Shown here one piece after another: positions 4,242-57,650 of a stretch of 64,000 nucleotides of DNA. Position numbers and translations under genes: made by a program. The notes beneath the pieces were generated by a model. That model was not told the DNA's origin. It made no database searches and saw only the letters and a list, made by a program, of their open reading frames with translations. This stretch comes from an uncultured Oscillospiraceae bacterium (lineage in GTDB: Bacteria > Bacillota > Clostridia > Christensenellales > CAG-138). Location: the NCBI GenBank assembly GCA_964476505.1, contig CAYZAW010000005.1, positions 1,205 through 65,204 of the forward strand, written 5' to 3'. Each line of letters begins with the position of its first letter. Positions within the stretch are counted from its first letter, which is position 1.

Positions 4242-4254
4242 GAGGTAACTTCTT

Positions 4255-6483: not shown

Positions 6484-6622
6484 CATACCGGTTATCGCTA
6501 ATTTAAATCATACAACCGACCGCTCCGCTTTTTTTAAGTGGGGCGGTTGCTTTATTTATTGGATATGGTACAGTAATGGATGCGAATAATCGGCATGAAT
6601 TGCAAAGGGGATACATCATCCT

Positions 6623-7693: not shown

Positions 7694-7723
7694 TAAAAAC
7701 CGTTTATTTTGTACTTTCATGAA

Positions 7724-7758
7724 AAAGCGAGTAAAAGCCTTTGCTTCTTACTCGCTTT
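7724..7758. terminator. Bidirectional intrinsic terminator between convergent genes
   Basis: Perfect stem AAAGCGAGTAA ... TTACTCGCTTT followed by TTGATTTT. It lies between the stop at 7693 (+) and the stop at 7825 (-). Confidence 0.7.
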
Positions 7759-7824
7759 TGATTTTATATCTTGTGATTTACCTGCACCGTTTCACCTGCC
7801 ATGGCAAGCAGTGCGAATGCTCCG

Positions 7825-9054: not shown

Positions 9055-9075
9055 AACGCTACCTCCACACTTTAT

Positions 9076-9720: not shown

Positions 9721-9843
9721 GTTTTACAGTATATCAAACCATATAAGGTTTTTCATCAGAAACATTTTCTAAATGATTGCATTGATTTATCCATCTATTA
9801 CGAACATTCTTGCCATGATATGATTTTAACGTTCCATTTTTCG

Positions 9844-9871
9844 TTGACTTTTTCCTTTGTTACCGTATAAT
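9844..9871 (+). promoter_or_regulatory. Sigma-70/SigA-type promoter for carA
   Basis: TTGACT (9844-9849), a 16-nt spacer, then TATAAT (9866-9871), about 35 nt upstream of the carA start. Confidence 0.6.
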
Positions 9872-9904
9872 AAGTGAGAAGAAACGAAAAAGCGGGGGTA
9901 TTGT

Positions 9905-10975: not shown

Positions 10976-10976
10976 C

Positions 10977-13900
10977 ATGCCTTTAGACGAACGTATCAAA
11001 AAAGTATTGATGATAGGCTCCGGTCCCATCGTGATAGGCCAGGCCGCCGAGTTCGATTATGCGGGCGCACAGGCCTGCCGGGTGTTGAAGGATGCGGGCG
11101 TAAACGTGGTGCTGGTAAACTCCAACCCCGCCACCATCATGACGGACAAATCCCTAGCAGATGAGATCTATTTAGAACCTTTAACGGAGCATACCATCCG
11201 CCGCATCATCGAAAAGGAGCGGCCAGACAGCATACTGGCCTCCCTTGGCGGGCAAACGGGGCTCACCATCGCCATGCAGCTTTCCAAGAGCGGATATTTA
11301 GAGAAAATGGGCGTGCGGCTTTTGGGTACCGATGCCGCGGCCATAGATGCTGCCGAAGACAGGCAGCTTTTTAAAGACACTATGGAGCGCATCGGTCAGC
11401 CGGTGATTCCCTCCGCCATTGCAAACGATGTTGTGCACGCTAAGGAGATCGCAAAGGAAATCGGTTACCCGGTGATCATCCGCCCGGCGTTTACCCTTGG
11501 CGGTGCGGGCGGCGGCGTAGCCTATGATGAAGCGGCGCTTGTGAATATCGCACAAAACGGCTTGGATATGTCTCCCATCACGCAGGTACTGGTGGAGCGT
11601 TATATTTTCGGCTGGAAAGAGATCGAATTTGAAGTGATGCGGGATGCGGCGGATAACGTGATCGCCGTGTGCAGCATGGAGAATTTCGACCCTGTTGGCG
11701 TACACACGGGAGACAGCATCGTCATTGCACCTGCGGTAACGCTATCCGATAAAGAATATCAAATGCTTCGAAGCGCGTCGTTGTCCATCATTTCCGCGCT
11801 GGGCATCCAAGGCGGCTGCAACTGCCAGTTCGCCTTGAACCCCGATAGCTTTGAATACGCGGTGATCGAGGTAAACCCCCGCGTTTCCCGCTCCTCCGCG
11901 CTTGCCAGCAAGGCCACCGGCTACCCCATTGCCAAGGTGACCACAAAAATTGCGCTTGGCTACACGCTGGACGAAATAGAAAACGCCGTTACAGGCAAAA
12001 CCTGCGCCTGCTTTGAGCCTACGCTGGATTACGTGGTGGTAAAGCTGCCCCGCTGGCCCTTTGATAAATTCGTACACGCTTCCCGTGCGCTTGGCACGCA
12101 GATGAAGGCCACCGGCGAGGTGATGGCGATTGCCCCGTCCTTTGAGATGGCTCTGTTAAAGGCCGTGCGCGGTGCGGAAATATCGCTGGACACCCTGAAT
12201 CTAAAAGCCCTTGCCGGCTGCGATTACCGGGAAAAGCTGAAGCAGGCAGACGATTTGCGCCTGTTTACGCTGTTTTATGCCCTCAAGCAGGGCGCAACAG
12301 TAGACGAATTGTTCCAACAAACGCGTATCGACCGTTGGTTCTTATATAAATTAGCACATTTGGCGCAATATGAAACCGCCATAACAAATCGTGTGCTGAC
12401 CGAAGAGCAGTATGCAGAGGGCAAGCGCTTAGGCTACACGGATAAGGCTTTGGAGCGTATCAGTAACAATCCCCTTCCCCTCCACCGCGCACCTGTATAC
12501 AAAATGGTGGATACCTGCGGCGCGGAGTTTGCCGCCCAAACGCCCTATTTTTACGCCACCTATGACGACGAGTGCGAGTCTCGCCCCATCGACCGCAGCA
12601 AGAAGGAGCGCATCATCGTGCTGGGCTCGGGGCCTATTCGCATAGGCCAAGGCATTGAGTTCGACTATTCCTCCGTGCATTGCGCCCGCACCCTGCAGGA
12701 GCTGGGCTACGATGTGATTATCGTAAACAACAACCCGGAAACCGTTTCCACGGACTTTGACACCTCCAACCGCCTGTACTTTGAGCCGCTCTGTGAGGAG
12801 GACGTAAAAAGCATCGTTGCCATAGAGCAGCCCATCGGCGTGGTGGTGGCGTTTGGCGGGCAAACCGCCATAAAGCTCACGAAATCGCTCCATGAAGCGG
12901 GCATTCAAATTTTAGGCACCTCGGCGGAAAGCATCGATATGGCGGAGGATCGGGAACGGTTCGACGCGTTACTGGAAAAATTTCACATCCGCCGCCCCAA
13001 GGGCATGGGCGTGGTCACCAAGGAGGAAGCCATCCATGCGGCAAATACGCTGGGTTTCCCCGTGCTGGTACGGCCTTCCTACGTGATTGGCGGGCAGAAC
13101 ATGACCATTGCCTATACGCCGGAGGATGTTGCGCAGTATATGGACTTGATACTGGCGCAAAACATCGAAAACCCCGTGCTGGTGGATCAATACCTGATGG
13201 GCATGGAGCTGGAGGTAGACGTGATTTCCGACGGCGTAGACGTGCTGATTCCCGGCATTATGGAGCATATCGAGCGGGCGGGCGTGCACTCCGGAGACTC
13301 CATTGCCATGTATCCGCCGCAAAACATTACAGATGCCATGCACGACATCATTGTGGACTGCTCCACCAAGCTGGCGCTTGCCATGGGCACCAAGGGGCTC
13401 ATCAATATTCAATACTTGGTGTATGAGGATGAACTGTATGTGATCGAAGTAAACCCGCGAGCGTCCCGCACCATCCCCTATATCAGCAAGGTAACGGGCG
13501 TGCCTATGGTGGCATTGGCAACCAAGATCATGGTAGGCGCAAAGCTGCGGGAGCTGGGCTACGGCACGGGCTTATACCGCACACCGCCGTATATCGCGGT
13601 GAAGGTGCCCGTATTTTCCTTCGAAAAGCTTTCTGACGCAAACTCAGAATTAGGGCCGGAAATGAAATCCACCGGCGAGGTATTGGGCGTTGGTAAAACC
13701 CGGGAGGAAGCCCTGTTCAAAGGACTGCTGGCGGCGGGCTACCGCCTGCCCCGTTCGGTTTACGAGCGCAAGGGCGGGGTGCTTATCAGCGTAACCAAAA
13801 AAAGCAGGTTGGAGATCATCCGCTTGGCAAAAAAGCTGAACGATCTTGGCCTTACGATCTACGCCACCCCCGGCACGGCGGACTCCATTTCCCAGCTTGG

Positions 13901-15014
13901 CATCGACGTGCGCCGGGTAAACCGGCTGTCGGAAGACAATAGCATATTCGACGTACTGGAGTCGGGTGCGATCAACTACATCGTGTTTACCGGCGCTTCC
14001 AAAAAAAGCACCATACAGGACTACACCCGCCTGCACCGCCGCGCCTTACAGCTTGGCGTTGCCTGCTTTACCTCGCTGGATACGGCAAACGCGCTGGCCG
14101 ACATCATTCAAAGCGGCTTCAACGAGGGCAATACGGAGCTCATCGATATCTGCCATATGCGCAAGGAGCGCCAGCGTATTTCCTTCCGCAAAATGCAGGG
14201 CGCAGGCAACGACTGCATCGTGCTGGACAACCGAAACGGCTCCATCACCTGCCCGGAATCCCTTGCGATACTGTTTTGCAACCGGCATTCCGGTATCGGC
14301 TCCGAGGGCGTTGTGTTGATTGAGCGCTCGGACTGCGCCGATGCAAAAATGCGCATGTTCAATCAGGACGGCAGCGAGGGCGGCATGGGCGGCAACAGCA
14401 TCCGTTGCGTGGCGAAGTACCTGTTTGACAACGGCATTGTGGATGGCGACCACCTGACGGTGGAAACCAATAGCGGCATTAAGGAGCTGGACATCAAGCT
14501 GTACGACGGCAAGGTACGCTCGGTGCGGGTAAACATCGGCAAGCCCCGCTTTGCCCCGGCAAGCATCCCCACCACCCTTCCAGGAGAGCGTATACAAAAC
14601 TATCCCCTGACTGTTGCCGGGCAGGAATTCCATATCAACTGCGTATCCTTCGGAAACCCGCACTGCGTGGTGTTCTGCGAACGAATCGACACGCTGGACT
14701 TGGCGTATATCGGCCCGCAGTTTGAAAACGACCTCTCGCTGTTCCCGGAGCGCATCAATACGGAATTTGTGCGGGTGGTCAACCGCAAGACCCTTCGCAT
14801 GCGCGCATGGGAGCGCGGCAACGGCGAAACATGGGCCTGCGGCACGGGCGCTTGTGCTTCCGTTGTAGCGGCGGTGGAAAACGGCTTGTGCGACCGCGAT
14901 ACGGATATCACCGTAAAAATGGTTGGCGGGGATTTGACCGTCCGCTACACAAACGAGGCCGTGTATTTAACCGGCAATACCAGCCTGATATTCGAAGGGG
15001 TCATTGAGTATTAA
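10977..15014 (+). CDS. carB: Carbamoyl-phosphate synthase large subunit, fused in frame to a C-terminal diaminopimelate-epimerase-like (DapF) domain
   Basis: 1345 aa, versus about 1070 for typical CarB. Residues 1 to about 1065 contain two ATP-grasp halves and an MGS-like tail (...TSLDTANALADII). From about nt 14178 the sequence ISFRKMQGAGNDCIVLD ... GGNSIRC ... SFGNPHCVVF ... ERGNGETWACGTGACA is colinear with full-length DapF. No stop or frameshift occurs at the junction. Confidence 0.85.
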   Translation: MPLDERIKKVLMIGSGPIVIGQAAEFDYAGAQACRVLKDAGVNVVLVNSNPATIMTDKSLADEIYLEPLTEHTIRRIIEKERPDSILASLGGQTGLTIAMQLSKSGYLEKMGVRLLGTDAAAIDAAEDRQLFKDTMERIGQPVIPSAIANDVVHAKEIAKEIGYPVIIRPAFTLGGAGGGVAYDEAALVNIAQNGLDMSPITQVLVERYIFGWKEIEFEVMRDAADNVIAVCSMENFDPVGVHTGDSIVIAPAVTLSDKEYQMLRSASLSIISALGIQGGCNCQFALNPDSFEYAVIEVNPRVSRSSALASKATGYPIAKVTTKIALGYTLDEIENAVTGKTCACFEPTLDYVVVKLPRWPFDKFVHASRALGTQMKATGEVMAIAPSFEMALLKAVRGAEISLDTLNLKALAGCDYREKLKQADDLRLFTLFYALKQGATVDELFQQTRIDRWFLYKLAHLAQYETAITNRVLTEEQYAEGKRLGYTDKALERISNNPLPLHRAPVYKMVDTCGAEFAAQTPYFYATYDDECESRPIDRSKKERIIVLGSGPIRIGQGIEFDYSSVHCARTLQELGYDVIIVNNNPETVSTDFDTSNRLYFEPLCEEDVKSIVAIEQPIGVVVAFGGQTAIKLTKSLHEAGIQILGTSAESIDMAEDRERFDALLEKFHIRRPKGMGVVTKEEAIHAANTLGFPVLVRPSYVIGGQNMTIAYTPEDVAQYMDLILAQNIENPVLVDQYLMGMELEVDVISDGVDVLIPGIMEHIERAGVHSGDSIAMYPPQNITDAMHDIIVDCSTKLALAMGTKGLINIQYLVYEDELYVIEVNPRASRTIPYISKVTGVPMVALATKIMVGAKLRELGYGTGLYRTPPYIAVKVPVFSFEKLSDANSELGPEMKSTGEVLGVGKTREEALFKGLLAAGYRLPRSVYERKGGVLISVTKKSRLEIIRLAKKLNDLGLTIYATPGTADSISQLGIDVRRVNRLSEDNSIFDVLESGAINYIVFTGASKKSTIQDYTRLHRRALQLGVACFTSLDTANALADIIQSGFNEGNTELIDICHMRKERQRISFRKMQGAGNDCIVLDNRNGSITCPESLAILFCNRHSGIGSEGVVLIERSDCADAKMRMFNQDGSEGGMGGNSIRCVAKYLFDNGIVDGDHLTVETNSGIKELDIKLYDGKVRSVRVNIGKPRFAPASIPTTLPGERIQNYPLTVAGQEFHINCVSFGNPHCVVFCERIDTLDLAYIGPQFENDLSLFPERINTEFVRVVNRKTLRMRAWERGNGETWACGTGACASVVAAVENGLCDRDTDITVKMVGGDLTVRYTNEAVYLTGNTSLIFEGVIEY

Positions 15015-46463: not shown

Positions 46464-47234
46464 TTACCCCATATAGGATTGATCCTCGGACAGCATCAGC
46501 ACAGGAACATTACCGCTGGCCGGCCTTACCACGTTTACATCCGCGCCGGGGGCGTATACGATGCAGTTTCGCTGATCCTGCTTCAGTTTTTCCATATAAG
46601 CCTGCTGCTCTTCCTCCGTCATAGGGCCGGGGCGCTGCCCCTCGGGGAATATGGTAATGAATTTCAATGCATATGCATCACAGCCAACAAAATTCCGTTC
46701 ATAGGGATCAAACAGAATAAAGTAGTCGCGGCCGATCTGGCTCATAATACCCGAGCGCGTATACATCATCTGCGTTCCAACTAAAAATTCGCAAACCACA
46801 TAACGGCCCAGAAGATTTGCCAGCCGTTCCTGCAGGGTGCGCGCCTGATTATCGATAATGTACTGCTCCATATTGCTCATGCGCCGCTGCAGCTCGTTAA
46901 CGTTTTCCGGAGAAGTGATACCGGTTCCCTCCCGCGTGAGGATGCTGGCTCCTTGCGGCATGGATGCGTCCTGCCACATGTCACCGCTCTGCTGCATGCC
47001 GCCTGTTTGCTGCATGCCACCTGTTTGCTGCATGCCGCCTGTTTGCTGCATGCCACCTGTTTGCGCCATACCACCTTGCGGTGATGAAGCATTCCATCGG
47101 GACGTTACGCCGCCGCCCTGCCGCATCGCGTTTTCCCATTGTTGCATGGAGTTATACCCCTGCGGCCAACCGTCCTCCTGCATCGTCATATTTCCCGGCT
47201 GTGGCATGCTGTCAATGTTTAAAAATTGCTCCAT
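46464..47234 (-). CDS. gerQ: GerQ-like spore coat protein (Q/G/M-rich repeat N-terminus plus a GerQ-type C-terminal domain)
   Basis: The C-terminal block LLGRYVVCEFLVGTQMMYTRSGIMSQIGRDYFILFDP...LKFITIF parallels the B. subtilis GerQ core (...F.G.I...GRDHIIISDP...YLDYITF). The N-terminus is Gln-rich, as in GerQ. It is adjacent to a cwlJ-family gene. Confidence 0.6.
   Translation of the reverse strand: MEQFLNIDSMPQPGNMTMQEDGWPQGYNSMQQWENAMRQGGGVTSRWNASSPQGGMAQTGGMQQTGGMQQTGGMQQTGGMQQSGDMWQDASMPQGASILTREGTGITSPENVNELQRRMSNMEQYIIDNQARTLQERLANLLGRYVVCEFLVGTQMMYTRSGIMSQIGRDYFILFDPYERNFVGCDAYALKFITIFPEGQRPGPMTEEEQQAYMEKLKQDQRNCIVYAPGADVNVVRPASGNVPVLMLSEDQSYMG
46991..47080 (-). repeat. Tandem 18-bp coding repeat (4 near-perfect copies plus 1 degenerate) inside gerQ-like
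   Basis: GCTGCATGCC(G/A)CCTGTTT repeats at 46991, 47009, 47027 and 47045. It encodes (TGGMQQ)n: ...GGMAQTGGMQQTGGMQQTGGMQQTGGMQQSGDM. Confidence 0.9.
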
Positions 47235-47260: not shown

Positions 47261-47632
47261 TTATGTTTCCGCATAGGCGGAAGTGGGCGCATAAAAGCAA
47301 TGATCGCCTATGCGCGCAGCGGCATAGCCTACCCGGCTTGGAAAATTGGTGGGGCATTGGCTGGAATAAGGGTTAAAAAACCAAAGCGCTTCTCCGGCAT
47401 CCCGAATGCGATTCCCGGCAATGGCCCAATCCGCAATATCATAATGAATCTGCTCCGGACGCATGTTATAGATGTTTTGCCCGTTGTTGTCATCCATGGC
47501 GCATTCAAATTGATACTGCTGATAAATGATGTTGCGTATGCTGCCGCTGCCAACGCGGGCATACTCGCCTTCATTTGTATTGACGCGGTTCATCACCACT
47601 CCCGCGACAGCCTTCATCCCGTTATCCCCTTC
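47261..47632 (-). pseudogene. cwlJ: cwlJ/sleB-family cell-wall hydrolase, 3' segment (about 120 codons) of a gene split by the inserted element
   Basis: Track ORF 47261..47617 (MKAVAGVVMNRVNTNEGEY...HCFYAPT) matches the Hydrolase_2 (SleB/CwlJ) catalytic domain minus its first ~24 residues. The frame is open upstream through ...EGDNG to the junction core at 47625-47632. There is no RBS or start appropriate for a full domain. Confidence 0.85.
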
Positions 47633-47660
47633 ATGATACGCAATAAAGGCAAACTGTTGG

Positions 47661-49238
47661 TTAATACAAAATCACATCAATACTATGGTCGTTTACGATA
47701 ACGTGTTGAATGAGGGAACGGGCGATTTTCTGTTTGGTCTTCATATCAAAATCATTAAATTGCTCAATAATCGTCTCAATGCTTACCCCGCAATTCATAT
47801 TCTTCTTTCGCTCATTATCAGCGTTGTATAATGCGCCCAATTCCTTATGCTTTTGCTCTATTGAACGCGTGTATTCGTCAAGGCGTTTTCTCAATGCGCC
47901 AATACTTGAATCCAAGCCACTCTCACGAGCAATTTCAATTTCATCTAATAAGTTGGAGCAACGGTTGTCCAATCGTGCAATCTCGTTCTTTATTTCAATC
48001 GCACGCTGGTTTTCCTGCTTATCGGTACTTGTTGCTTCTATGCACCGCAGTTCATTGAGACGATACATCATCTTGTTATATACAAAGCACTCGATTTCTT
48101 CAAGCTGCCAAGCATGTTCACGTCCTGTACAAACATGTTTCTTGCGTCCATAGCAGTTTACATAATTACGACCTCGATTGTTATTAACAACCGTAAGGCC
48201 ATATCCACATTTCCCGCACCGCATAAGGCCGCTTAACCATGAATGCGTTCCGCTTCTGTCGCATTTAACTTGTTTGTTATTGTCTAATTTATACTGGCAA
48301 GCCAACCATACCTGCGAATCGACTATACCTTCGTGCGGTGCAAGCGTAACAAATGCATTTGAAATATTCGCAAATGTTTTTCCGTTCTTCTTTTTTACAT
48401 AATTGTATTCTTCCAGCTCTTTCTTGGTTCGTTCAATGTTTTTTGCATAGATGTAACAGCCGTTCGTCCCCGCATAACAGCTAATATCATCGTTCATTGT
48501 TGCACCCTTACCGTTTAAATACTGATAAACCATAGCATCTGCTTTCACATAGCAAGGATGCCGCAGCAGTCTTGCAAGGCCGGGACCGTCAAAGTTATAT
48601 CCGCGCATCGTCTTAATACCCATTTCGGTGAGTTTTACCGTCAATTTCCCCAGAGATACGTTGGTCGTGGCATATTCATGATAAATAAACTTGATAGTAT
48701 CTCGTTTTGATTCATCCACTTGATAAGCGGCGGTTTTCTTGCCATGTAGTTGAATATCAACCTTGTTATACCCAAATGGCGCATAACCGCCAAGATAGAA
48801 GCCCTTTTCCGCGCGGCTAAAAAAGTTATCTGCAACTCTCTCGGCAATCGTGTTTCTCTCCATTTGTGCAAATACCATGGCTATCATTATCATTGCCTCG
48901 CCCATTGACGTTCTGGTATCGAATTTTTCGCTACACGAAATAAACTGTACATTGTGGCTCTTCATAAGCTCCCATGTATTGCAGAAATCAAGTAGATTTC
49001 TACTTATTCGGTCAAGTCTATAGACGATAATCGTCGAAATCTGGTCATTCCTGATATCATCTAAAAGCCGTTGAAATTCTGGTCGTCCAACAGCATTCTT
49101 ACCGCTTCGGCTTTCTTGATAGACTATCACACTGTCCTGCTCGGATATCTGTTGGCGGCATAACGATATCTGGTCTTCAATAGACAAGCTATCCTTTTTT
49201 TCTATGGATTGACGCGCATAAATAGCGCATTTTTTCAT
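47661..49238 (-). CDS. Large serine recombinase (resolvase catalytic domain, recombinase domain, zinc ribbon, coiled-coil)
   Basis: ORF 47661..49283; the start MKKCAIYARQS at 49238 follows GAGGTG. It has the catalytic Ser context AIYARQSIEKKDSLSIEDQ, then VYRLDRISRN, a zinc-ribbon C..C...C pattern (LMRCGKCGYGL...CYGRKKHVCTG), and a long C-terminal helical region. No frameshift or premature stop. Confidence 0.9.
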   Translation of the reverse strand: MKKCAIYARQSIEKKDSLSIEDQISLCRQQISEQDSVIVYQESRSGKNAVGRPEFQRLLDDIRNDQISTIIVYRLDRISRNLLDFCNTWELMKSHNVQFISCSEKFDTRTSMGEAMIMIAMVFAQMERNTIAERVADNFFSRAEKGFYLGGYAPFGYNKVDIQLHGKKTAAYQVDESKRDTIKFIYHEYATTNVSLGKLTVKLTEMGIKTMRGYNFDGPGLARLLRHPCYVKADAMVYQYLNGKGATMNDDISCYAGTNGCYIYAKNIERTKKELEEYNYVKKKNGKTFANISNAFVTLAPHEGIVDSQVWLACQYKLDNNKQVKCDRSGTHSWLSGLMRCGKCGYGLTVVNNNRGRNYVNCYGRKKHVCTGREHAWQLEEIECFVYNKMMYRLNELRCIEATSTDKQENQRAIEIKNEIARLDNRCSNLLDEIEIARESGLDSSIGALRKRLDEYTRSIEQKHKELGALYNADNERKKNMNCGVSIETIIEQFNDFDMKTKQKIARSLIQHVIVNDHSIDVILY

Positions 49239-49290
49239 TGGTATATCACCTCTTAAATAACTTAATGGATGAGACGCTATCAATGAGCCT

Positions 49291-49488
49291 CTACGGTAAC
49301 CGGTCTTGACAATGCTTAATAACCGAAGTAGCTATTTGCTTATTGAGCCTTGCACGTTCATTGTCGGTCATTGCCGTCTCAAATACATTGTCGCTGACTT
49401 TTTTACATTTCACCGGCGGATAGCCTTTAATCATGATGTTATACTCATCATTTGTAGAGTCGTATGACATTACCATTTTATAACGCAC
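49291..49488 (-). CDS. Small hypothetical protein immediately upstream of the recombinase gene
   Basis: A 65-aa ORF (or 61 aa from MVMSYDS), 52 nt upstream of and co-oriented with the recombinase. No recognisable motif. Confidence 0.35.
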   Translation of the reverse strand: MRYKMVMSYDSTNDEYNIMIKGYPPVKCKKVSDNVFETAMTDNERARLNKQIATSVIKHCQDRLP

Positions 49489-49800
49489 CGCCTATCCGTT
49501 ATAAATATGGAGCCATACTTTGGCTTATTACTGCTGCAAAGTATCCTTGAAACGCATGCAGATGCAAACTGCCGGATACTGGCTGCAGTTGTGCATGCGA
49601 CGCTAAATCGACAGTCGCTTACGATATAAAGAGTACTATCTGCGAATTGAACGCAAGGGATATGATAATCAACATGATTATTACTTGATACAATACAAGG
49701 TCTACTGAACGCAATAGCAGTGAAAATATGCAAACCATAATACGCTTTCGGGTAACTAATACGTTAATTATCTGAAAGCGCTATTCGTCTACGCGAAATA

Positions 49801-51585
49801 TTGAAAATGCTTACCCTGTGTGATACAATATATGCTATATTTATGGCAATTACTCAAATTGATCATTATTCTGTTTACAGTCATATCACGAACACAAAAA
49901 CGGCGTATCCACGATGGTTAGAGAGAACGGGAGAAAACGCAGTAATGATTAAAGACTTAGAGCGCGGCAATATGTTGTTGGAAAGCATACAGACGCTGAA
50001 CGAGGCCGCTATACACTTATATGAAATGATGTTGGATGAAAGCGATGAAACGATGGAGTTTGCGCAGGAAATAAGGCAACTCATCGTTAGCATGCAAGAG
50101 TCGTTTGATGCATTGTACGCAGAGGAAAACGCCCTTATGGGGCAGCTTATTAACAAGAATGCGCTGTATTCGTTGGACAATTTAATGCGTTATGCTAAAA
50201 CCGATTCTAAGGCCGCCTGCCATAAGTTGCAGTTTGAGTTTCTTCCGCTCACCGCCGAGCTTTATGTTGATCTATATTTCTGGGGCTTCTGCTATCCGGA
50301 CAAGGATAAGATGTGGAACTATTACCGCACGGAAATGAACGAGTTGTGCCCTCTGCCAGTCCCTGAAAACGGCGAGTACAAGTATGATGTTTCTGTGGTG
50401 ATCATTGCATACAACAAGCTAGAATATACAAAAAAGTGCATCAAGTACTTTCAAGAATTCTTCCCACATGAACTGAATTATGAGTTGATACTTTACAATA
50501 ACGGCTCCAATGACGGCACAAAAGAGTTCTTTGAAACTCTTCACCCCAATAAGCAGATCGATCTGCTGCGCAACACGAAGAGCTGGTCGATATTGAGCCG
50601 TGTGGCAGAAGGGAAATACATACTTACCGTTGCAAACGACGTGTTAATACTGCCAAATGCCATCCAGAATCTTATAAAATGTATTGAAAGCGATGAGAGT
50701 ATATGCTGCGTTATGCCAGCATCGCCTAATGTTGCAAATTACGAATCCATACCTGCTTCCTATCGGGACGAAGCAGAAATGATAGAATTTGCGCAGAAAA
50801 ACAATGTGGCCGATTCTTCCCGCTGGGAACAGCGAGCGAGACTTAATCCGCCGCTTTTGTTAGCACGGAGCGATTCTTCGGCGGTGCATACACTCTGCAC
50901 ATATCATTATCCGTTCATGCCGGACAGATTTCTTGCATTTACCGACGATGCCATGAGCTTAGTTGCACGAAGAAGCAAACAAAAGTGTATTTTGGCGAAA
51001 GATGCATACATACACCATTTTGGAAGTGTAACAGTTAGCGATGTATTTTATAATGCAAGAAACGATATGTCGGAGTTTTACTCAAAAGGCCGCAATGGTT
51101 TTTTGCGTATTTTTGATATCGACCCTTGGAGTGTGGGTTTCTGCTACGACGCTGAACTGGTTTTTTCCCTAATGTACGATCTCAAACAGCCAACGAACAT
51201 ACTGGGCGTGAACTGTGGTATGGGCGATACAATGCTAAAAATCAAGGCAATGCTTGGCAGTTGCTGCCATAATACGAATGTTGGATTATATAACATAACG
51301 GACAATCTTTCTTACAAAGACGATCTAGCCGGGCTTTCTGACAATTTTGCGTTCATTGCCGAATGGGAACAGGTTGAAAATACGTTCAATGGTGTCAAAT
51401 TCTCCTATATTGTCATTGAGGATGTAACCGAAGGCGCAGCGTCAGAGAAAACGCTGAAAATGCTGTTTGCGAAGCTAATAGCAGGCGGCGTGATGGCTGT
51501 AAAACATCCAAATACAGTGTTTGTGGACGATCGGTGTAACAAAACAGACAAAACGGAGCACTGGCGGAAATTCTATAAAAGCTGA
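49801..51585 (+). CDS. Multidomain glycosyltransferase (helical N-terminal region, GT2 domain, C-terminal methyltransferase-like domain)
   Basis: GT2 signature VSVVIIAYNKLEYTKKCI...NNGSNDGT... and DD/DxD-like TVANDV. The C-terminal segment ILGVNCGMGD... resembles class I SAM-MTase motif I. The start is uncertain; ATG 49945 (MIKDLERG) is the alternative. Confidence 0.65.
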   Translation: MKMLTLCDTIYAIFMAITQIDHYSVYSHITNTKTAYPRWLERTGENAVMIKDLERGNMLLESIQTLNEAAIHLYEMMLDESDETMEFAQEIRQLIVSMQESFDALYAEENALMGQLINKNALYSLDNLMRYAKTDSKAACHKLQFEFLPLTAELYVDLYFWGFCYPDKDKMWNYYRTEMNELCPLPVPENGEYKYDVSVVIIAYNKLEYTKKCIKYFQEFFPHELNYELILYNNGSNDGTKEFFETLHPNKQIDLLRNTKSWSILSRVAEGKYILTVANDVLILPNAIQNLIKCIESDESICCVMPASPNVANYESIPASYRDEAEMIEFAQKNNVADSSRWEQRARLNPPLLLARSDSSAVHTLCTYHYPFMPDRFLAFTDDAMSLVARRSKQKCILAKDAYIHHFGSVTVSDVFYNARNDMSEFYSKGRNGFLRIFDIDPWSVGFCYDAELVFSLMYDLKQPTNILGVNCGMGDTMLKIKAMLGSCCHNTNVGLYNITDNLSYKDDLAGLSDNFAFIAEWEQVENTFNGVKFSYIVIEDVTEGAASEKTLKMLFAKLIAGGVMAVKHPNTVFVDDRCNKTDKTEHWRKFYKS

Positions 51586-51600
51586 TAAGGGGGTAGTCGC

Positions 51601-52374
51601 TTGAAGGTTGTAATTCTTGCTGGAGGCTATGGTACGCGCATCAGCGAAGAAAGTCAATTACGGCCAAAGCCTATGATCGAAGTCGGTGAACAGCCGATTC
51701 TTTGGCATATCATGAAGCTGTATTCCCATTATGGGCATAATGAATTTATTATTTGTGCCGGGTATAAACAGCACATGATCAAAGAGTATTTTGCGGATTA
51801 TTATCTACATCGTTCGGACATTACATTCGATTTTACACAGGACAATGCTATGACGATCCATAACAATGTGGCGGAGCCTTGGCGTGTTACCGTTGTGGAT
51901 ACAGGGTTGGACACCATGACGGGCGGTCGTGTGAAGCGCGTACAAAAGTATATTGGAGACGAACCATTCCTTTTAACTTATGGCGATGGCGTATCCAATG
52001 TGAATATCAATGCTTTGGTGGATTACCATAAAAAAAGCAAGAAAATTGCGACACTTACAGCCATCCAACCGGGAGGCCGCTTTGGCGTATTGGACATTGA
52101 CGCAGATAATATAATTAAAAACTTTGCAGAAAAGTCCAAGGAGGACGGCGGGTGGATCAACGGTGGATTTATGGCATTGGAGCCTTCTATATTTCGGTAT
52201 ATCGAAGGAGATACAACCATACTGGAGCGTAAGCCGCTAGAAACGCTTGCCCAAGAAAACCAACTTAACGCGTTCTTACATGATGGCTTCTGGCAATGCA
52301 TGGATACGTTACGGGATAAAGAGCTTTTAGAACGGCTTTGGAAAAGCGGCGAAGCACCGTGGAAGGCGTGGTAA
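51601..52374 (+). CDS. rfbF: Glucose-1-phosphate cytidylyltransferase
   Basis: MKVVILAGGYGTRISEES..RPKPMIEVGEQPILWHIMKLYS...FIICAGYK is near-canonical RfbF. TTG start after AAGGGGG. Confidence 0.9.
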   Translation: MKVVILAGGYGTRISEESQLRPKPMIEVGEQPILWHIMKLYSHYGHNEFIICAGYKQHMIKEYFADYYLHRSDITFDFTQDNAMTIHNNVAEPWRVTVVDTGLDTMTGGRVKRVQKYIGDEPFLLTYGDGVSNVNINALVDYHKKSKKIATLTAIQPGGRFGVLDIDADNIIKNFAEKSKEDGGWINGGFMALEPSIFRYIEGDTTILERKPLETLAQENQLNAFLHDGFWQCMDTLRDKELLERLWKSGEAPWKAW

Positions 52375-53466
52375 ATGATTGATTTAGAATTTTATAAACA
52401 TAAGCGGGTGTTTATTACCGGGCATACGGGCTTTAAAGGCGCATGGATGTGTGCGGTATTGCTGCAACTGGGAGCGGAAGTATCAGGGTACGCCTTAACA
52501 CCGCCTACCAACCCCAGCCTATACGCGTTAACGGGAATACAAAACAATATGAACTCCGTTTTAGGAGATGTGCGTGATTTCGATGCGCTGGCTGTTGCAA
52601 TGTGTGCTGCGCAGCCTGAGATCGTTATTCATATGGCGGCGCAGCCAATTGTACGGGAGGGTTATCGCGATCCCGTAGGAACATATGCAGTGAATGTAAT
52701 GGGTACCGTACATGTGTTCGAGGCGGCGCGCCGCTGCGGCACTGTTCGCCTGATTATAAATGTTACAACAGACAAGGTCTATGAGAACAATGCGGACATC
52801 ATGTATACGAACGGCTATTGTGAAACGGACCGGCTCAATGGCTATGACCCGTATTCCAATAGCAAATCATGTTCTGAACTGGTTACGGAATGCTACCGGC
52901 ACCTGTTGGTAAATAGTGATGATGGGCAAGCGAGTATCTCGGTTTCTTCCTGTCGCGCAGGAAATGTTATTGGCGGAGGGGATTTTGCGAAAGACCGGAT
53001 AATTCCGGATTGTGTACGGGCAATGAAAGAAGGTCGGCGCATCACGGTTCGCAATCCTTACTCTATTCGTCCATATCAGCATGTTCTGGAGCCGGTGTTC
53101 GCTTATTTAATCATTGCACAAAAACAGTTTGCTGATACGCGGTATGCGGGTGCATATAACATTGGCCCAAACGATTGCGATTGCATCACAACAGGCATGC
53201 TAGCGGACTTGTTTTGCGCGGCGTGGGGCTCTAACGCAGCTTGGGAGAACGTTGCTGAGAAAAACGCACCTCACGAAGCGGCATTCCTGAAGCTGGATTG
53301 CTCAAAAGCGAAAAGCATACTGGGCTGGGAGCCGGTATGGCATATAGAAACAGCAGTACAAAAAACAGTAGAGCTGGCGAAGGTATGGCTTGCAGGAGAA
53401 GACATGGCACAAGCAATGGAGGGGCAAATCCTGGAGTATATTAAGGATTGCCAATCATTGATATAA
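52375..53466 (+). CDS. rfbG: CDP-glucose 4,6-dehydratase
   Basis: FYKHKRVFITGHTGFKGAWM...GYAL.PPT.PSL N-terminus, a YSNSK catalytic motif, 363 aa. Confidence 0.9.
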   Translation: MIDLEFYKHKRVFITGHTGFKGAWMCAVLLQLGAEVSGYALTPPTNPSLYALTGIQNNMNSVLGDVRDFDALAVAMCAAQPEIVIHMAAQPIVREGYRDPVGTYAVNVMGTVHVFEAARRCGTVRLIINVTTDKVYENNADIMYTNGYCETDRLNGYDPYSNSKSCSELVTECYRHLLVNSDDGQASISVSSCRAGNVIGGGDFAKDRIIPDCVRAMKEGRRITVRNPYSIRPYQHVLEPVFAYLIIAQKQFADTRYAGAYNIGPNDCDCITTGMLADLFCAAWGSNAAWENVAEKNAPHEAAFLKLDCSKAKSILGWEPVWHIETAVQKTVELAKVWLAGEDMAQAMEGQILEYIKDCQSLI

Positions 53467-53494
53467 TTGCTGAGGCGTACTAGGGAGAAGGAAT

Positions 53495-54727
53495 ATGAAG
53501 AATATGCATTGCCGCAGCTGCGGGCAAACATTGGAGCATGTTTTTGTGGATTTGGGGATGTCTCCTCTTTCCAACTGTTACTTATCGGCGAATCAGCTTG
53601 AAAACGGGGAGAAATTTTATCCTTTAAAGGCATATGTGTGCGACAAGTGTTATTTGGTTCAGCTGGGCGAATACGAATCACCGGAGACAATTTTCAGCGA
53701 TTATGCGTATCTTGCTTCCTATTCGAACAGCTGGCTCTTGCATTGTGAGCATTATGTAAACATGATCACTCAGAAGCTAAAGCTTTCCACAGAATCCAAG
53801 GTGATCGAAATCGCCAGTAATGACGGATATTTGCTGCAATACTTTGTACAGCGTAAAATCCCCTGCCTAGGCATCGAGCCTGCGGCGAATGCAGCAGCCG
53901 TTGCAAGGGAAAAAGGGGTAGCAACCGTAACGGCTTTTTTTGGCACCGATTTAGCCAAAAAGCTAAAATCAGAAGGAGAGCAAGCTGACCTTCTTTTAGG
54001 CAACAATGTACTGGCGCACGTTCCGGCAATCAACGATTTTGTGGCGGGAATGAAGATTCTACTCAAACCATCCGGCGTAATTACAATGGAATTCCCACAT
54101 TTGCTGAATTTAATACGTTATAATCAGTTTGATACCATTTATCATGAGCATTTCTCATATCTTTCTTTTTCAACGGTATCACGGGTATTCGCCGCCAACG
54201 GACTTCGCTTGTTCGATGTTGAAAAGCTGCAAACCCACGGGGGGTCACTTCGTATCTATGCTACGCATGCGGAAAACAACGACTACCCTGAAACAGACGA
54301 GGCCAAAGCACTGTACGCGCAGGAGGAGGCGTTTGGCTTAAATGGGCTAACGGCATATCATTCCTATTTTAAAAAGGTACAAGCGACAAAACGCAGTATT
54401 TTATCCTTCTTGATTCAAGCAAAAAACGAAGGAAAACGAATTGTCGGATACGGTGCGCCCGCAAAGGGGAATACACTGCTAAACTATTGCGGCGTTCGGG
54501 ACGATTTTATCGATTTTACCGTCGACAGAAGCCCTTTGAAGTATGGAAAGTATTTACCGGGTACGCATATCGCTGTACGGCCTGTTGAAGCAATATGCCA
54601 GGAAAAACCGGACTATCTTGTGATATTGCCGTGGAACTTGAAGGATGAGATCATGGAGCAGTGCGCCTATATCCGAAATTGGGGCGGAAAATTCGTTACG
54701 TTGATACCGGAAGTGGAAGTATTATGA
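53495..54727 (+). CDS. NDP-hexose C-methyltransferase family protein (Zn-ribbon, class I MTase, C-methyltransferase C-terminal domain)
   Basis: It has an N-terminal CRSCG...CDKC zinc ribbon, FSDYAYLASYSNSW, and an IEIASNDGYLL SAM motif. The architecture resembles TylCIII-like sugar C-methyltransferases. Confidence 0.75.
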   Translation: MKNMHCRSCGQTLEHVFVDLGMSPLSNCYLSANQLENGEKFYPLKAYVCDKCYLVQLGEYESPETIFSDYAYLASYSNSWLLHCEHYVNMITQKLKLSTESKVIEIASNDGYLLQYFVQRKIPCLGIEPAANAAAVAREKGVATVTAFFGTDLAKKLKSEGEQADLLLGNNVLAHVPAINDFVAGMKILLKPSGVITMEFPHLLNLIRYNQFDTIYHEHFSYLSFSTVSRVFAANGLRLFDVEKLQTHGGSLRIYATHAENNDYPETDEAKALYAQEEAFGLNGLTAYHSYFKKVQATKRSILSFLIQAKNEGKRIVGYGAPAKGNTLLNYCGVRDDFIDFTVDRSPLKYGKYLPGTHIAVRPVEAICQEKPDYLVILPWNLKDEIMEQCAYIRNWGGKFVTLIPEVEVL

Positions 54728-55260
54728 TATTTACACCAACAAAATTTGACGGTACATTTTTACTTACGCAGCAACGTATGGAGGATGAGCGGGGGTTCTT
54801 TGCGCGTACGTTCTGCGCCGAAGAATTTCGGGAGCGAGGGCTTTACGAACACTTTGTTCAGTGCAGCATTTCTCACAACAAAGCAAAGGGAACCCTGCGC
54901 GGGATGCACTTTCAGTCACATCCCTATGAAGAAGTGAAGTTGGTTGCATGTATACGGGGCGGTATATTTGACGTGATCGTGGATCTGCGCAAGGATTCCT
55001 CTACATATTTATTATGGGAAGGCTTCGAACTCACGCCGGAAAACGGCAGAATGCTATATATTCCCCAAGGGTTTGCCCATGGGTTTCTTACGCTGTCGGA
55101 TGAAAGCGATGTATATTATCAAATGTCTGTCCCATACCATAAAGAATGTGCCACAGGGATCAGCTATCAGAACAAACGGGTCGGTATTCACTGGCCGGTA
55201 TCGGGCGAATTGGTTATATCAACGGCAGACCGCGAACGAGACAAGGAGTATTTGCCATGA
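54724..55260 (+). CDS. RmlC-like cupin NDP-4-keto-6-deoxyhexose 3,5-epimerase family protein
   Basis: ORF 54661..55260; ATG 54724 forms an ATGA overlap. The RmlC pattern ERGFFARTF...TLRGMHFQ...E.KLV.C..G.IFDV.VDLR is present. Confidence 0.85.
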   Translation: MIFTPTKFDGTFLLTQQRMEDERGFFARTFCAEEFRERGLYEHFVQCSISHNKAKGTLRGMHFQSHPYEEVKLVACIRGGIFDVIVDLRKDSSTYLLWEGFELTPENGRMLYIPQGFAHGFLTLSDESDVYYQMSVPYHKECATGISYQNKRVGIHWPVSGELVISTADRERDKEYLP

Positions 55261-56150
55261 ATAAGGTGCTGCTTACTGGCGCGAACGGCTTTATTGGGCG
55301 GTATTGCGTGAACGCCTTTCTTGATGCCGGCTTTGATGTATATGCAGCATGCCATAGTGATATGGCCGGCTTGCCGCAAAACGCGCATTGTTTTCTATGG
55401 GATATTAAAAATACGCAGGAAGTCATTAAACTGATGTCCGCAATAAGGCCATCGCATCTTGTGCATTTGGCATGGTATGTTGAACCAGACACCTATGTAC
55501 ATGCGGATGAAAATATCGACTGGCTGCAATACAGTATGTTTTTAATAAAGGCATTTGTTCAATCTGGAGGCAAGCGGTTGGTAACGGTTGGCACGTGCTT
55601 TGAGTATGATTTGAATCATAGCGTGTTTCAGGAGAACAGCACGCCGTTAATGAGCAATTCTCTGTATGCCACAGCAAAAACTAGCCTGTTTCGGCTTTCT
55701 TCGGTCTATTGCCATAATCATGGTGTAGAATACGCTCATGCGCGGCCATTCTATCTGTTTGGCATCGGAGAAAACGAAAAACGCGTGATTCCGCATATTA
55801 TATCAAGCCTGCTGCAGAGGCAACAAGTACAGGTTTCGCATGGAGAACAAGTTCGGGATTATTTATATGTTGCAGATGTGGCATCTGCACTCGCGGCAGT
55901 TTCTGCTTCAGAGATATCAGGCGCTGTAAACATTGGATCCGGCATAGGAGTGCAGCTGAAGGAATTGTTTTTGATGATCGAACGAGCAACCGGTTGTACG
56001 GGGCTGGTGCAGTTGGGAGCAATCCCGACTAAGCCAAATGAAGCACCGGTAATTATAGCGGACAACAGACGCTTGCTGTGTGAAACAAACTGGCGGCAGA
56101 AGTACAGCTTGGAAGCCGGTCTTCAAGAGACGATAGCGGCTATGCAATGA
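55257..56150 (+). CDS. NAD(P)-dependent sugar epimerase/reductase (SDR family)
   Basis: ORF 55146..56150; ATG 55257 overlaps the preceding stop. It has a VLLTGANGFIGR Rossmann motif and a YATAK catalytic Y-x3-K. Confidence 0.8.
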   Translation: MNKVLLTGANGFIGRYCVNAFLDAGFDVYAACHSDMAGLPQNAHCFLWDIKNTQEVIKLMSAIRPSHLVHLAWYVEPDTYVHADENIDWLQYSMFLIKAFVQSGGKRLVTVGTCFEYDLNHSVFQENSTPLMSNSLYATAKTSLFRLSSVYCHNHGVEYAHARPFYLFGIGENEKRVIPHIISSLLQRQQVQVSHGEQVRDYLYVADVASALAAVSASEISGAVNIGSGIGVQLKELFLMIERATGCTGLVQLGAIPTKPNEAPVIIADNRRLLCETNWRQKYSLEAGLQETIAAMQ

Positions 56151-56205
56151 ATTGGCTGGCCAGGTTTGCTTATTAACTACTGAATATGATATAAGGAGAA
56201 TAATT

Positions 56206-56940
56206 ATGGATCAAAACACAGCGTTTAGAATGGAACGTACCGCTGCGGCAGAGCAAATGGCGCAGGACGAAAAGTTGAATGCGCTTTCACTCGAGTGGAT
56301 GCAGCGGGCAGAGAAACACAAGTATTGCTATAATTATACATGGATGGGCCGTCCGATCATCAAGTTTCCTAATGATATCGTATTGGCGCAAGAAATCATT
56401 TGGGAGGTAAAGCCCGATCTGATTATTGAAACCGGTATTGCCCATGGCGGTAGCATCATCTTTTCCGCTTCTATGCTGGAACTTTTAGGAGGAAACGGCG
56501 AAGTGGCGGCTGTGGACATTGACATTCGTTCTCATAATCGGAAGGCAATTGAGGAACATCCAATGGCAAAACGCATTAGGATGTGGGAAGGCTCCTCCAC
56601 GGATGAAAAAATCGCCAATGAGATTCGAGCGTTGGCGCATAGTAAGAAGAGCGTTATGGTTTTTTTGGATTCGCTACACACGCACGATCATGTTTTGCGC
56701 GAGATGGAGATTTACGGGCCAATGGTAACCGTAGGCTCCTTTATGGTGGTTATGGATACCTGCATTGAAGCATTTCCGGCAGGCACTTATCAGGACAGGC
56801 CTTGGGATGTAGGAAACAATCCGATGACTGCAGCGAAAGCCTATTTAAAGGATCATAACGAATTTATAGTGGATAATGATTGTTGTAATAAGCTTTGTAT
56901 TACGGAAGCTTTTAGCGGATATTTAAGGAAGGTTCGTTAA
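56206..56940 (+). CDS. CmcI / cephalosporin-hydroxylase-family methyltransferase (sugar O-methyltransferase-like)
   Basis: ORF 56152..56940; ATG 56206 follows AAGGAG. YNYTWMGRPIIKFPNDI...KPDLIIETGIAHGGS is typical of the CmcI family. Confidence 0.75.
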   Translation: MDQNTAFRMERTAAAEQMAQDEKLNALSLEWMQRAEKHKYCYNYTWMGRPIIKFPNDIVLAQEIIWEVKPDLIIETGIAHGGSIIFSASMLELLGGNGEVAAVDIDIRSHNRKAIEEHPMAKRIRMWEGSSTDEKIANEIRALAHSKKSVMVFLDSLHTHDHVLREMEIYGPMVTVGSFMVVMDTCIEAFPAGTYQDRPWDVGNNPMTAAKAYLKDHNEFIVDNDCCNKLCITEAFSGYLRKVR

Positions 56941-57039
56941 ATACGCACTCCCTATGGCGGCTTGCGTAAAAGCGGAGTGCCGGGAGAATGACATACCGTA
57001 TCTGGTTTAAGTGGATAAGTAGGAGTGGTTATTATCTTT

Positions 57040-57260
57040 GCAGCTTTCTAAAAGCAACGCCATGCAGCAGCACCGCAAGAAGGTCGTGGAACATCCCTTC
57101 GGAACTATCAAGTGGCATGACGTAGCATACTATTCTTTGCCGTGGTAAGGAAATGGTCAGTGCCGAAGCTCCACTGAGCTTCACGGCATATAATCTCCGG
57201 CGGGCAATCAATACGGTAGGCACAAAAGCGTTTTTACTGTATCTCTATGCCCAAAAACGG
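57040..57260 (+). pseudogene. Remnant of an IS (IS1182/IS5-like) transposase C-terminus, frameshifted
   Basis: One frame gives ...QQHRKKVVEHPFGTIKWHDVAYYSLPW*. After a 1-nt shift the sequence continues as (G)KEMVSAEAPLSFTAYNLRRAINTVGTKAFL. The VEHPFGxIK ... AYNLRRAIN pattern is the conserved C-terminal end of DDE transposases of this group. The roughly 400 upstream codons are missing. Confidence 0.6.
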
Positions 57261-57336
57261 AGCAAAACGAAAAAATGCGGAGCTGCAAATCTAAAAAGAT
57301 GGATAAATTGGAGTAGAGTTCTGAGCAGAAAAGTAC

Positions 57337-57363
57337 AGCGACGGCAAAACCGTCGCTCTTTTT
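57337..57363 (+). terminator. Intrinsic terminator
   Basis: AGCGACGG-CAAAA-CCGTCGCT followed by CTTTTT. Confidence 0.65.
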
Positions 57364-57416
57364 GATACAAAAATGTCGAGAAACTCCCTAATTTAGGAAG
57401 CTTCCGGACAGGGTGT

Positions 57417-57493
57417 GGTGGAGATAAGGGGACTCGAACCCCTGACTTCTGCATTGCGAACGCAGCGCTCTACCAAGGTGGTACGCATCCCCT
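57417..57493 (-). tRNA. tRNA-Ala(CGC)-like sequence with a defective D-arm (probable pseudo-tRNA)
   Basis: The 77-nt sequence is GGGGATG CGTACCACCTTGGTAGAGCG CTGCG TTCGCAA TGCAG AAGTC AGGGG TTCGAGT CCCCT TATCTCC A CCA. The acceptor stem pairs and includes G3:U70. The anticodon arm (CGC) and T-arm are canonical and CCA is encoded. Where GCTC should pair with GAGC in the D-stem, the sequence reads TACC(A). Confidence 0.5.
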
Positions 57494-57585
57494 GCCCTTT
57501 TTACTCCCCCAGATTTTTTCTGAGGGAGTTTCTTAATGCCAAGGCAACGTACTACACGCTCTTTATGTTGTGTTCCATTATTGCG

Positions 57586-57650
57586 TCTCCTTCGCCACCC
57601 GCTTCGCATTGGATCAAGCGCGCCAAAAGCTCTCTGTCTGAAAAGGGCAT
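57586..57650 (-). pseudogene. cwlJ: cwlJ/sleB-family cell-wall hydrolase, 5' segment (22 codons) of the split gene
   Basis: GAGGAG RBS, then ATG at 57650. The sequence MPFSDRELLARLIQCEAGGEGD matches the conserved N-terminal helix of SleB/CwlJ (LLAR.I..EA.GE). The frame then enters the element and ends after 10 unrelated codons (AIMEHNIKSV*) at 57552. Confidence 0.85.

Follow-up and report, generated by a model that had tools for sequence, protein, structure and literature searches.

A sugar-synthesis and transfer cassette carried by a serine-recombinase element within cwlJ of an uncultured Oscillospiraceae bacterium, with flagellin as a possible acceptor

What does a complete sugar-modification cassette do inside a cortex-lytic-enzyme gene, and does that position say anything about the cassette's function? 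The locus lies in a 64,000-nucleotide stretch of DNA from an uncultured Oscillospiraceae bacterium (contig CAYZAW010000005.1, positions 1,205 to 65,204; the whole stretch is called the window). Here a cwlJ-like gene is split by a mobile element, and the element carries seven genes for the synthesis and transfer of an activated hexose. A preliminary description of this DNA had proposed a portable glycan module, possibly destined for the spore surface. The cassette is best explained as a cytoplasmic, self-contained module that makes one sugar and attaches it, and its setting by capture on a cwlJ-targeting large-serine-recombinase element of phage origin. An even chance was given to the prediction that this is a horizontally portable module for flagellin-glycan modification, with flagellin, or a glycan already on flagellin, as the acceptor. 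The assignment is a family-level one.

The seven genes are closely spaced on the forward strand, and profile searches placed them in the families named in Table 1. Working gene coordinates were taken from an independent gene caller run on an identical metagenomic contig. The stop codon of RfbF directly abuts the start of RfbG, and ATGA overlaps were found at the junctions of the 3-C-methyltransferase (C-MT) with RmlC and of RmlC with the short-chain dehydrogenase/reductase (SDR). All seven open reading frames (ORFs) are intact and show ribosome-binding sites and translational coupling. An identical RfbG protein was found on contigs of seven separately accessioned samples, with the cassette neighbours unchanged as far as each contig extends. 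The description of seven co-oriented, tightly packed genes of these families was borne out by Pfam and NCBIfam profiles, by matches to solved structures and by the junctions; the family assignments likewise support a self-contained cytidine diphosphate (CDP)-hexose pathway with a fusion of glycosyltransferase (GT) and methyltransferase. Two details were revised. The GT had been given a start at TTG 49801, which is an in-frame upstream extension; the gene caller starts at ATG 49945. The gene set otherwise stood, with the positions of the epimerase, SDR and CmcI-family genes corrected to those in Table 1.

No transmembrane-like segment was found in any of the seven proteins, and a flippase, a polymerase and an initiating phosphoglycosyltransferase were absent from the Pfam and NCBIfam assignments of the cassette genes. 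The site of action of the module must then be the cytoplasm, and its acceptor must come from the host. The lack of these three functions and of any membrane protein led to the rejection of another option, a capsule or O-antigen locus sufficient in itself.

The limits of the element were obtained from an uninterrupted metagenomic contig (L094). This contig matches the window from 57828 to 57586 and then from 47632 to 46674 at >99.5% identity with an 8-bp overlap, and because this empty site matches both flanks the element was set at 47633-57585. The two cwlJ pieces were joined by hand, giving a 142-aa protein with a PF07486 match of 80 bits. In a database search this protein was 100% identical over 100% of its length to P0138, encoded on L094, so excision in silico restores the ORF; P0138 and L094 represent a natural empty site and not evidence of excision events. 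Relatives of the rejoined protein were labelled Clostridiales, Oscillospiraceae or Ruminococcaceae. The cores read GAAGGGGA at attB, GAAGGAGA at attL and GAAGGGGA at attR, which places the crossover within GAAGG. The element coincides with a low-GC island at roughly 47.6-57.5 kb (about 0.41-0.47, against 0.54-0.56), and the seven intact cassette genes are its only cargo.

Related recombinases were found at the same target. Those of two other contigs (L095 and L097) are 54-55% identical to the window recombinase and lie next to a 3' fragment of cwlJ that is broken at the same codons as in the window, with a TGAAGG core and a similar element end (11540-12020 in both L095 and L097). The elements of L095 and L097 carry phage genes, namely NrdD, dUTPase, DNA polymerase III alpha, ClpP and PhoH. 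A further recombinase relative (57% identity) was found on a phage-like contig. The cwlJ gene thus appears to be a recurrent landing site of serine-recombinase phages in these Clostridia, and by comparison of sequences the window element is a small, non-phage member of a cwlJ-targeting family of elements with phage-type recombinases. Because related recombinases put phage genomes at these same codons, the cwlJ location was read as target preference of the recombinase, with no functional link between cargo and spore. The claim of a portable, self-contained module was supported, because the element is precisely bounded, has a natural empty site, carries the cassette as sole cargo and belongs with recombinases that act at the same codons.

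A 61-aa ORF (orf61) lies directly upstream of the recombinase gene. Weak homologues were found directly upstream of all four related recombinases examined (L095, L096, L097 and L099; tblastn E 4e-8 to 2e-3 in 3-kb search spaces), and these share a KGYxPxxC motif. Neither Pfam nor PHROG gave a match to orf61. It is a candidate recombination directionality factor or recombinase partner.

The right end of the element is a non-coding tail of about 230 bp beyond the terminator, with a marginal tRNA-like match. ARAGORN found no tRNA. When the sequence was examined by eye, an anticodon loop with CGC (Ala) and mismatches in the D and acceptor stems were seen. The sequence is probably a relic, and it may be left over from the locus where the cassette was captured. 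Searches with the non-coding head and tail of the element (blastx and blastn against all fetched loci) returned only the element itself and copies of the same element (L001 and L002).

The arrangement resembles that of known intervening elements, skin in sigK, SPbeta in spsM and gin in gerE (PMC4191935, PMC5595907, PMC5025042), which likewise carry a terminal large serine recombinase and are inserted in a sporulation or germination ORF that becomes whole again once the element is precisely removed. The window element, like gin, is small and not a prophage. Target and cargo differ from those of the known elements, the target here being cwlJ and the cargo a glycan pathway. No mention of cwlJ was found in the intervening-element papers retrieved.

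The order of reactions was predicted from the enzyme families. RfbF and RfbG would yield CDP-4-keto-6-deoxy-D-glucose. The TcaB9/KijD1-type enzyme would then add a methyl group at C-3, adjacent to the keto group. This C-MT contains PF08421 (80 bits), PF13489 and PF08484 (211 bits), Methyltransf_13 and Methyltransf_14 being among its domains. It aligns over its full length (residues 5-410) with solved sugar 3-C-methyltransferases at E 4e-78 to 1e-62 (4rv9, 4e-78; 5t64, 1e-72; 3ndi, 9e-64), which include the KijD1-type 5t64 and TcaB9; because of this end-to-end alignment, C-3 methylation beside the 4-keto group is the best reading. The RmlC-like enzyme would epimerise the sugar; it scored 165 bits against a cut-off of 155.75 for TIGR01221, a model built on deoxythymidine diphosphate (dTDP) enzymes, and 195.6 against 27 for PF00908, and the use of CDP by this epimerase is inferred.

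The SDR, of the extended type, was read as a 4-ketoreductase because its nearest solved relative is a guanosine diphosphate (GDP)-6-deoxy-D-lyxo-4-hexulose reductase (2pk3). This Rmd-like enzyme would reduce C-4 to give CDP-6-deoxy-3-C-methyl-hexose, probably of the L series. O-methylation would follow by the CmcI-family enzyme, by the methyltransferase domain of the GT or by both, before or after transfer, and the soluble three-domain GT would move the sugar onto an acceptor already produced by the host. The CmcI-family protein scored 103.9 bits against the 400-bit equivalog cut-off of NF045824 (rhamnosyl O-methyltransferase). By profile it belongs to the wider PF04989 family without being orthologous to the mycobacterial enzyme, and O-methylation of the sugar is its probable role. 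The families point to a CDP-6-deoxy-3-C-methylhexose as the product but do not fix its stereochemistry. A 6-deoxy, C-methyl-branched, epimerised, reduced and possibly O-methylated product had been foreseen, and this chemistry agrees with the solved-structure relatives.

CDP-vinelose of Azotobacter vinelandii, a 6-deoxy-3-C-methyl-2-O-methyl-L-talose, is CDP-linked, 3-C-methylated and O-methylated, as predicted for the cassette product. It was treated as a lead and not as evidence; a literature search for vinelose returned nothing. The pathway logic proposed for virenose in Coxiella (PMC3539893) is alike, with a 4,6-dehydratase, a TylC3-type 3-C-methyltransferase, an epimerase and a 4-reductase, but that sugar is proposed to be GDP- or dTDP-linked, against a predicted CDP link here. 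Antibiotic sugars of the mycarose type, represented by the solved TcaB9, KijD1 and 4rv9, share this logic but are dTDP-linked and 2-deoxygenated. Nothing on CDP-branched sugars was found in a Geobacillus flagellar-island paper or a C. botulinum genome paper.

The GT was modelled with AlphaFold2 (AF2) at a predicted local distance difference test (pLDDT) score of 90.9. The model comprises a helical bundle (residues 1-134), a GT-A domain (147 to about 390) and an alpha/beta domain (417-545). The whole-protein Foldseek search was dominated by GT-A matches. The C-terminal domain was therefore also considered by itself: modelled alone (pLDDT 92.6), it returned class-I S-adenosylmethionine (SAM) methyltransferases as all of the top 50 matches in the PDB (best E 5.6e-7). 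No match was returned when the N- and C-terminal domains were compared by sequence with the PDB. The fusion of a GT2 domain to a SAM-methyltransferase-like domain, with an extra N-terminal helical domain as noted earlier from the sequence, is thus carried by the AF2 models and Foldseek.

Forty members of the GT family align over their full length at 46% mean column identity, and a GxxxGxG motif is invariant across them. In a collection of genomes from 185,579 species, 438 relatives were confirmed among 593 pattern-matched stretches. On these sequence matches the family of about 550 aa, with helical bundle, GT-A and methyltransferase domains, is widespread. No family-specific Pfam, NCBIfam or PHROG model matched the GT, and no paper describing such a family was found. 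A search of metagenomic contigs with the GT gave one distant match only.

A search of IMG/VR gave one true family member. The contig concerned (L100; IMGVR_UViG_3300037067_010622) is 46.9 kb long and classed as viral, and holds a full cassette at 1374-14898: a thiamine pyrophosphate (TPP) enzyme, NeuB, an SDR, an FkbM methyltransferase, a radical SAM enzyme, a pyruvyl transferase, the GT family member, an E1/DegT enzyme, RfbF and RfbG. Many small ORFs flank it; this is a glycan module borne by a phage, or else host DNA that was wrongly classed as viral.

The acceptor was approached through the genomic neighbourhoods of relatives. A total of 79 loci encoding a relative of the GT were collected from species-representative genomes; ORFs were called and clustered, and key clusters were checked with Pfam. 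The flagellar genes counted were those for flagellin, FliD, FliS, FlaG, FlgB/C, FliF/G, FliW/CsrA, FlaF and FlbT (flagellin, FlaF and FlbT verified with Pfam). Such genes were found 4 bp to 7.9 kb from the GT in 27 of the 79 loci (20 of the 47 with full 10-kb flanks), so homologous GTs and sugar genes do occur in flagellar loci of other genomes. The flagellin gene abuts a GT2-tetratricopeptide-repeat (TPR) gene in 14 of 16 flagellin-containing loci. RfbF was present in 41 of the 79, a DegT/E1-type enzyme in 45, a TPP enzyme in 35 and NeuB in 22. Flagellar-linked GTs were scattered across nearly all clades of a neighbour-joining GT tree. The survey of homologous cassettes, a check named in the preliminary description, returned flagellar linkage in this part of the loci, and homologues of the window cwlJ or gerQ-like genes in none of the 79 (further spore-coat genes were not screened by name). 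A close relative of the recombinase was also found in none.

For two of the sugar enzymes, the window C-MT (57-60% identity) and RmlC (48-54%), the best matches come from flagellar loci of three species, Paenibacillus harenae, P. zeisoli and P. sediminis. These three loci have the window order GT-RfbF-RfbG-C-MT-RmlC, placed between flagellin/GT2-TPR and FlaG-FliD-FliS; they carry hexapeptide acyltransferases where the window cassette ends with an Rmd-like reductase and the CmcI-family methyltransferase. Pathways for CDP-sugars (RfbF/G/H/S), leading to CDP-paratose or a 3,6-dideoxyhexose, have been predicted in Clostridium flagellar glycosylation islands (PMC13317340). The Firmicutes flagellar islands (PMC13317340; Paenibacillus L086, L090 and L091) likewise combine RfbF, RfbG, modifying enzymes and a homologous GT of about 550 aa in one operon. 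They differ in setting: a flagellar locus there, and here a serine-recombinase element inside cwlJ with no TPR-type initiating GT.

Outside the Firmicutes, three loci from Gram-negative Smithella, Thermodesulfobacteriota and Smithellaceae metagenome-assembled genomes (L026, L037 and L039) place the GT family beside FlaF, FlbT and flagellin, together with B12-binding radical-SAM enzymes. These gene sets suggest elaborate flagellin glycans in those lineages. A contig labelled Enterococcus cecorum ESM13AIC1 (L018) carries two flagellins, FliD, FliS, a GT2-TPR gene and a GT family member 4 bp from FliS. Enterococcus cecorum is not known to be motile, and flagellar genes are unexpected there; contamination or a genuine motility island could explain the gene set.

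The flagellin glycan of C. difficile R20291 is lengthened with 6-deoxyhexoses (rhamnoses) by a GT2 that combines PF00535 with a methyltransferase domain; methylation of these sugars by the same enzyme has been proposed, and rhamnose-biosynthesis-like genes lie upstream of fliC (PMC5207246). The donor there was taken as dTDP-rhamnose (nucleotide inferred), against a predicted CDP-linked branched sugar here, and an N-terminal helical bundle like that of the window GT is not described for the C. difficile enzyme.

Several observations weigh against flagellin as the acceptor. The cassette is not within or next to flagellar structural genes; it lies inside cwlJ, and no flagellar families were found among roughly 40 larger annotated ORFs of the 64-kb window. 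A TPR-type or Maf-type initiating transferase is absent from the element. The fusion of GT2 and methyltransferase shared with the C. difficile type-B flagellin GT2 (CDR20291_0242, PMC5207246) was compared by description only, and the promoter call for the cassette, given below, is a consensus match only. Finally, no flagellar structural gene was found within 10 kb in any of the seven distinct loci examined from the clade of the window GT (44-61% identity: the L008/L015 pair, L013, L016, L017, L027, L121, identical in L122 and L123, and L124). These are stand-alone-looking islands at varied sites. Within this set L017 has a GT2-TPR gene directly upstream, as does L061, which was grouped with L017 by synteny, its GT being too fragmented for tree placement; in L124, genes for CheA and CheY lie at a distance of about 7 kb.

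The same islands bear on a second reading, in which the acceptor is another host-made molecule at the cytoplasmic face and the element resembles a serotype-converting island. Candidate acceptors are surface glycoproteins, of the S-layer or otherwise, and lipid-linked intermediates of a cell-wall or secondary polymer. The closest GT relatives, free of flagellar neighbours and spread over varied chromosomal sites, fit this reading, and their neighbours include secreted Big_2-domain proteins with an extracytoplasmic function (ECF) sigma factor (L008/L015) and a transposase (L124). In 52 of the 79 loci no flagellar gene lay within 10 kb, and the element has no initiating transferase. However, no recurrent non-flagellar neighbour fit to be an acceptor emerged across the surveyed loci, the cassette has no transporter, flippase or polymerase genes, and many of the apparently non-flagellar loci are on short contigs or contain GT2-TPR, NeuB or other genes of the flagellar-island type. 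This second reading was judged rather unlikely.

Expression signals were scanned by consensus. The best-scoring sigma-70-like site in the element, TTGAAA-17-TACAAT, matches at 10 of 12 positions plus TG; TTG 49801, the start codon first proposed for the GT, is part of its -35 hexamer. From this sigma-A-type promoter the cassette would be expressed in vegetative cells. The orientation antisense to the interrupted cwlJ was confirmed, and the independent expression earlier deduced from it is backed by this promoter-like site, a consensus match. Matches to the sigma E, K, G, F, D and H consensus sites were about as many as in shuffled sequence, which is weak evidence either way. A weak sigma-E-like match with two mismatches lies at 49666-49694, about 250 bp upstream of the GT, and is not above chance. 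Another sigma-E-like match, GAGTAAT-14-CATATATT, was seen at 49855-49827 (-), facing the orf61-recombinase pair, and is likewise not above chance. It diverges from and overlaps the sigma-A-like promoter of the cassette, and would fit mother-cell expression of the recombinase module.

These signals matter for the spore-surface destination first proposed, by which the mother cell would express the cassette and its soluble GT would decorate proteins or polysaccharide of the coat, crust or exosporium, the element carrying and not interrupting a spore glycan pathway. The host is a spore-former, the element lies within a cortex-lytic-enzyme gene, and all enzymes are soluble, compatible with glycosylation in the mother-cell cytoplasm; the match at 49666-49694 lies upstream of the GT. 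A precedent exists in B. subtilis, where a CDP-glucose operon, yfnHGF, is controlled by sigma-K/GerE and linked to coat polysaccharide (PMC517825). The yfnHGF/yfnED genes resemble the window cassette in combining a CDP-glucose-type pathway with glycosyltransferases in a spore-former (PMC517825), but they are chromosomal and controlled by sigma-K/sigma-E, and no sporulation promoter is evident in the window cassette, the sporulation-sigma matches not exceeding the shuffled expectation and the best promoter being sigma-A-like. The top matches of the window GT included no close homologue from Bacillus, and no Bacillus spore-crust GT was found among its 120 best homologues. The GT family is not restricted to spore-formers: non-spore-formers of the Smithellaceae and Thermodesulfobacteriota also encode it, with flagellin, FlaF and FlbT as neighbours. 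With the absence of cwlJ or gerQ-like homologues from the surveyed loci, the flagellar linkage of relatives and the phage genomes inserted at the same cwlJ codons, which make the location uninformative on cargo function, a spore-surface destination was not supported, and it was considered improbable.

That the cassette is an inert passenger, a decaying remnant that has lost expression or function, is highly improbable: non-coding debris and a degenerate tRNA-like sequence do lie at the right end of the element and an acceptor-specifying gene is absent, but the remnant reading is countered by seven intact ORFs with translational coupling and ribosome-binding sites, by an identical RfbG with the same cassette neighbours across seven separately accessioned samples, by curated family cut-offs that were passed and by a high-confidence GT model.

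The flagellin reading can be joined to the recombinase evidence in a more speculative scheme, to which only a low probability was assigned. A phage-derived mini-element would have swapped its phage genome for a surface-glycan conversion cassette. In vegetative cells the flagellum or another surface protein would be redecorated with a rare, vinelose-like sugar, a CDP-linked 6-deoxyhexose with 3-C-methyl and O-methyl groups, and in the sporulating mother cell excision by the recombinase with the 61-aa partner would restore cwlJ. If so, redecoration could change recognition by phages or the immune system, and such a serotype-converting intervening element would serve two cell types.

Table 1. Positions, in the window, of the cassette, the element, its insertion site and the adjoining gene
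Feature	Position	Strand	Basis
Three-domain glycosyltransferase (GT), 546 aa	49945..51585	+	PF00535 49 bits; AF2 model; gene caller
RfbF, glucose-1-phosphate cytidylyltransferase	51601..52374	+	TIGR02623 410.8 bits vs cut-off 300.25
RfbG, CDP-glucose 4,6-dehydratase	52375..53466	+	TIGR02622 428.1 bits vs cut-off 278.45
NDP-hexose 3-C-methyltransferase (C-MT), TylC3/KijD1/TcaB9 type	53495..54727	+	PF08421, PF08484
RmlC-like 3,5- (or 5-) epimerase	54724..55260	+	PF00908 195.6 bits; TIGR01221 165 bits
SDR, probable NDP-4-keto-6-deoxyhexose 4-reductase	55257..56150	+	PF01370; 2pk3 E 1.9e-25
CmcI/rhamnosyl-O-methyltransferase-family methyltransferase	56206..56940	+	PF04989 284 bits; 2bm8 E 2.7e-9
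Sigma-A-type promoter-like site TTGAAA-17-TACAAT, extended TG	49801..49829	+	116 nt upstream of GT start
Bidirectional terminator-like hairpin downstream of cassette	57337..57357		Sequence scan
Mobile element, 9,953 bp, inside cwlJ-like gene	47633..57585		Empty-site contig L094; GC 0.444 vs 0.54 elsewhere in window
cwlJ-like gene, 3' part (Hydrolase_2)	47261..47632	-	PF07486 72 bits; junction alignment with attB
attR core GAAGGGGA	47632-47625	-	Within cwlJ-like 3' part
cwlJ-like gene, 5' part, 22 codons, MPFSDRELLARLIQCEAGGEGD	57586..57650	-	Sequence; rejoined protein
attL core GAAGGAGA	57593-57586	-	Within cwlJ-like 5' part
Large serine recombinase, 525 aa, adjoining attR	47661..49238	-	Resolvase, Recombinase and Zn_ribbon_recom domains; phrog_95 integrase 304 bits
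orf61, 61-aa ORF directly upstream of recombinase gene	49291..49476	-	Gene caller
Weak tRNA-like sequence, 95 bp from right end of element	57419..57490	-	Rfam RF00005 31.5 bits vs gathering score 29
Neighbour labelled gerQ	46464-47234	-	Q-rich, five MQQTGG repeats

Two neighbouring genes were also considered. The gene labelled gerQ in the preliminary description gave no Pfam or NCBIfam match even at permissive thresholds, and that label was not verified by any profile. In L095 and L097, cwlJ is likewise followed by a gene, here of about 228 aa. Elsewhere in the window, at 10977-15014 (+), a 1,345-aa ORF combines carbamoyl-phosphate synthase large-chain domains with a C-terminal diaminopimelate epimerase domain (residues about 1222-1337), which points to an unusual gene fusion or to two genes read through as one.

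Flagellar glycosylation cassettes and intervening elements in sporulation genes are both already known. New, as far as found, is their combination: a complete module for sugar synthesis and transfer as the sole cargo of a 10-kb serine-recombinase element, with a cwlJ target shared with phages. The cwlJ gene joins the sporulation and germination genes that serve as landing sites for serine recombinases, with a non-phage example beside those of phages at these codons. For a CDP-linked 3-C-methyl-6-deoxyhexose, a class of sugar whose genetics are poorly documented, the cassette offers a clean set of candidate genes. If the reading is correct, whole protein-glycosylation modules, comprising both sugar synthesis and transferase, can travel between gut Clostridia on a 10-kb element, which would offer a compact route to variation in surface antigens and phage receptors.

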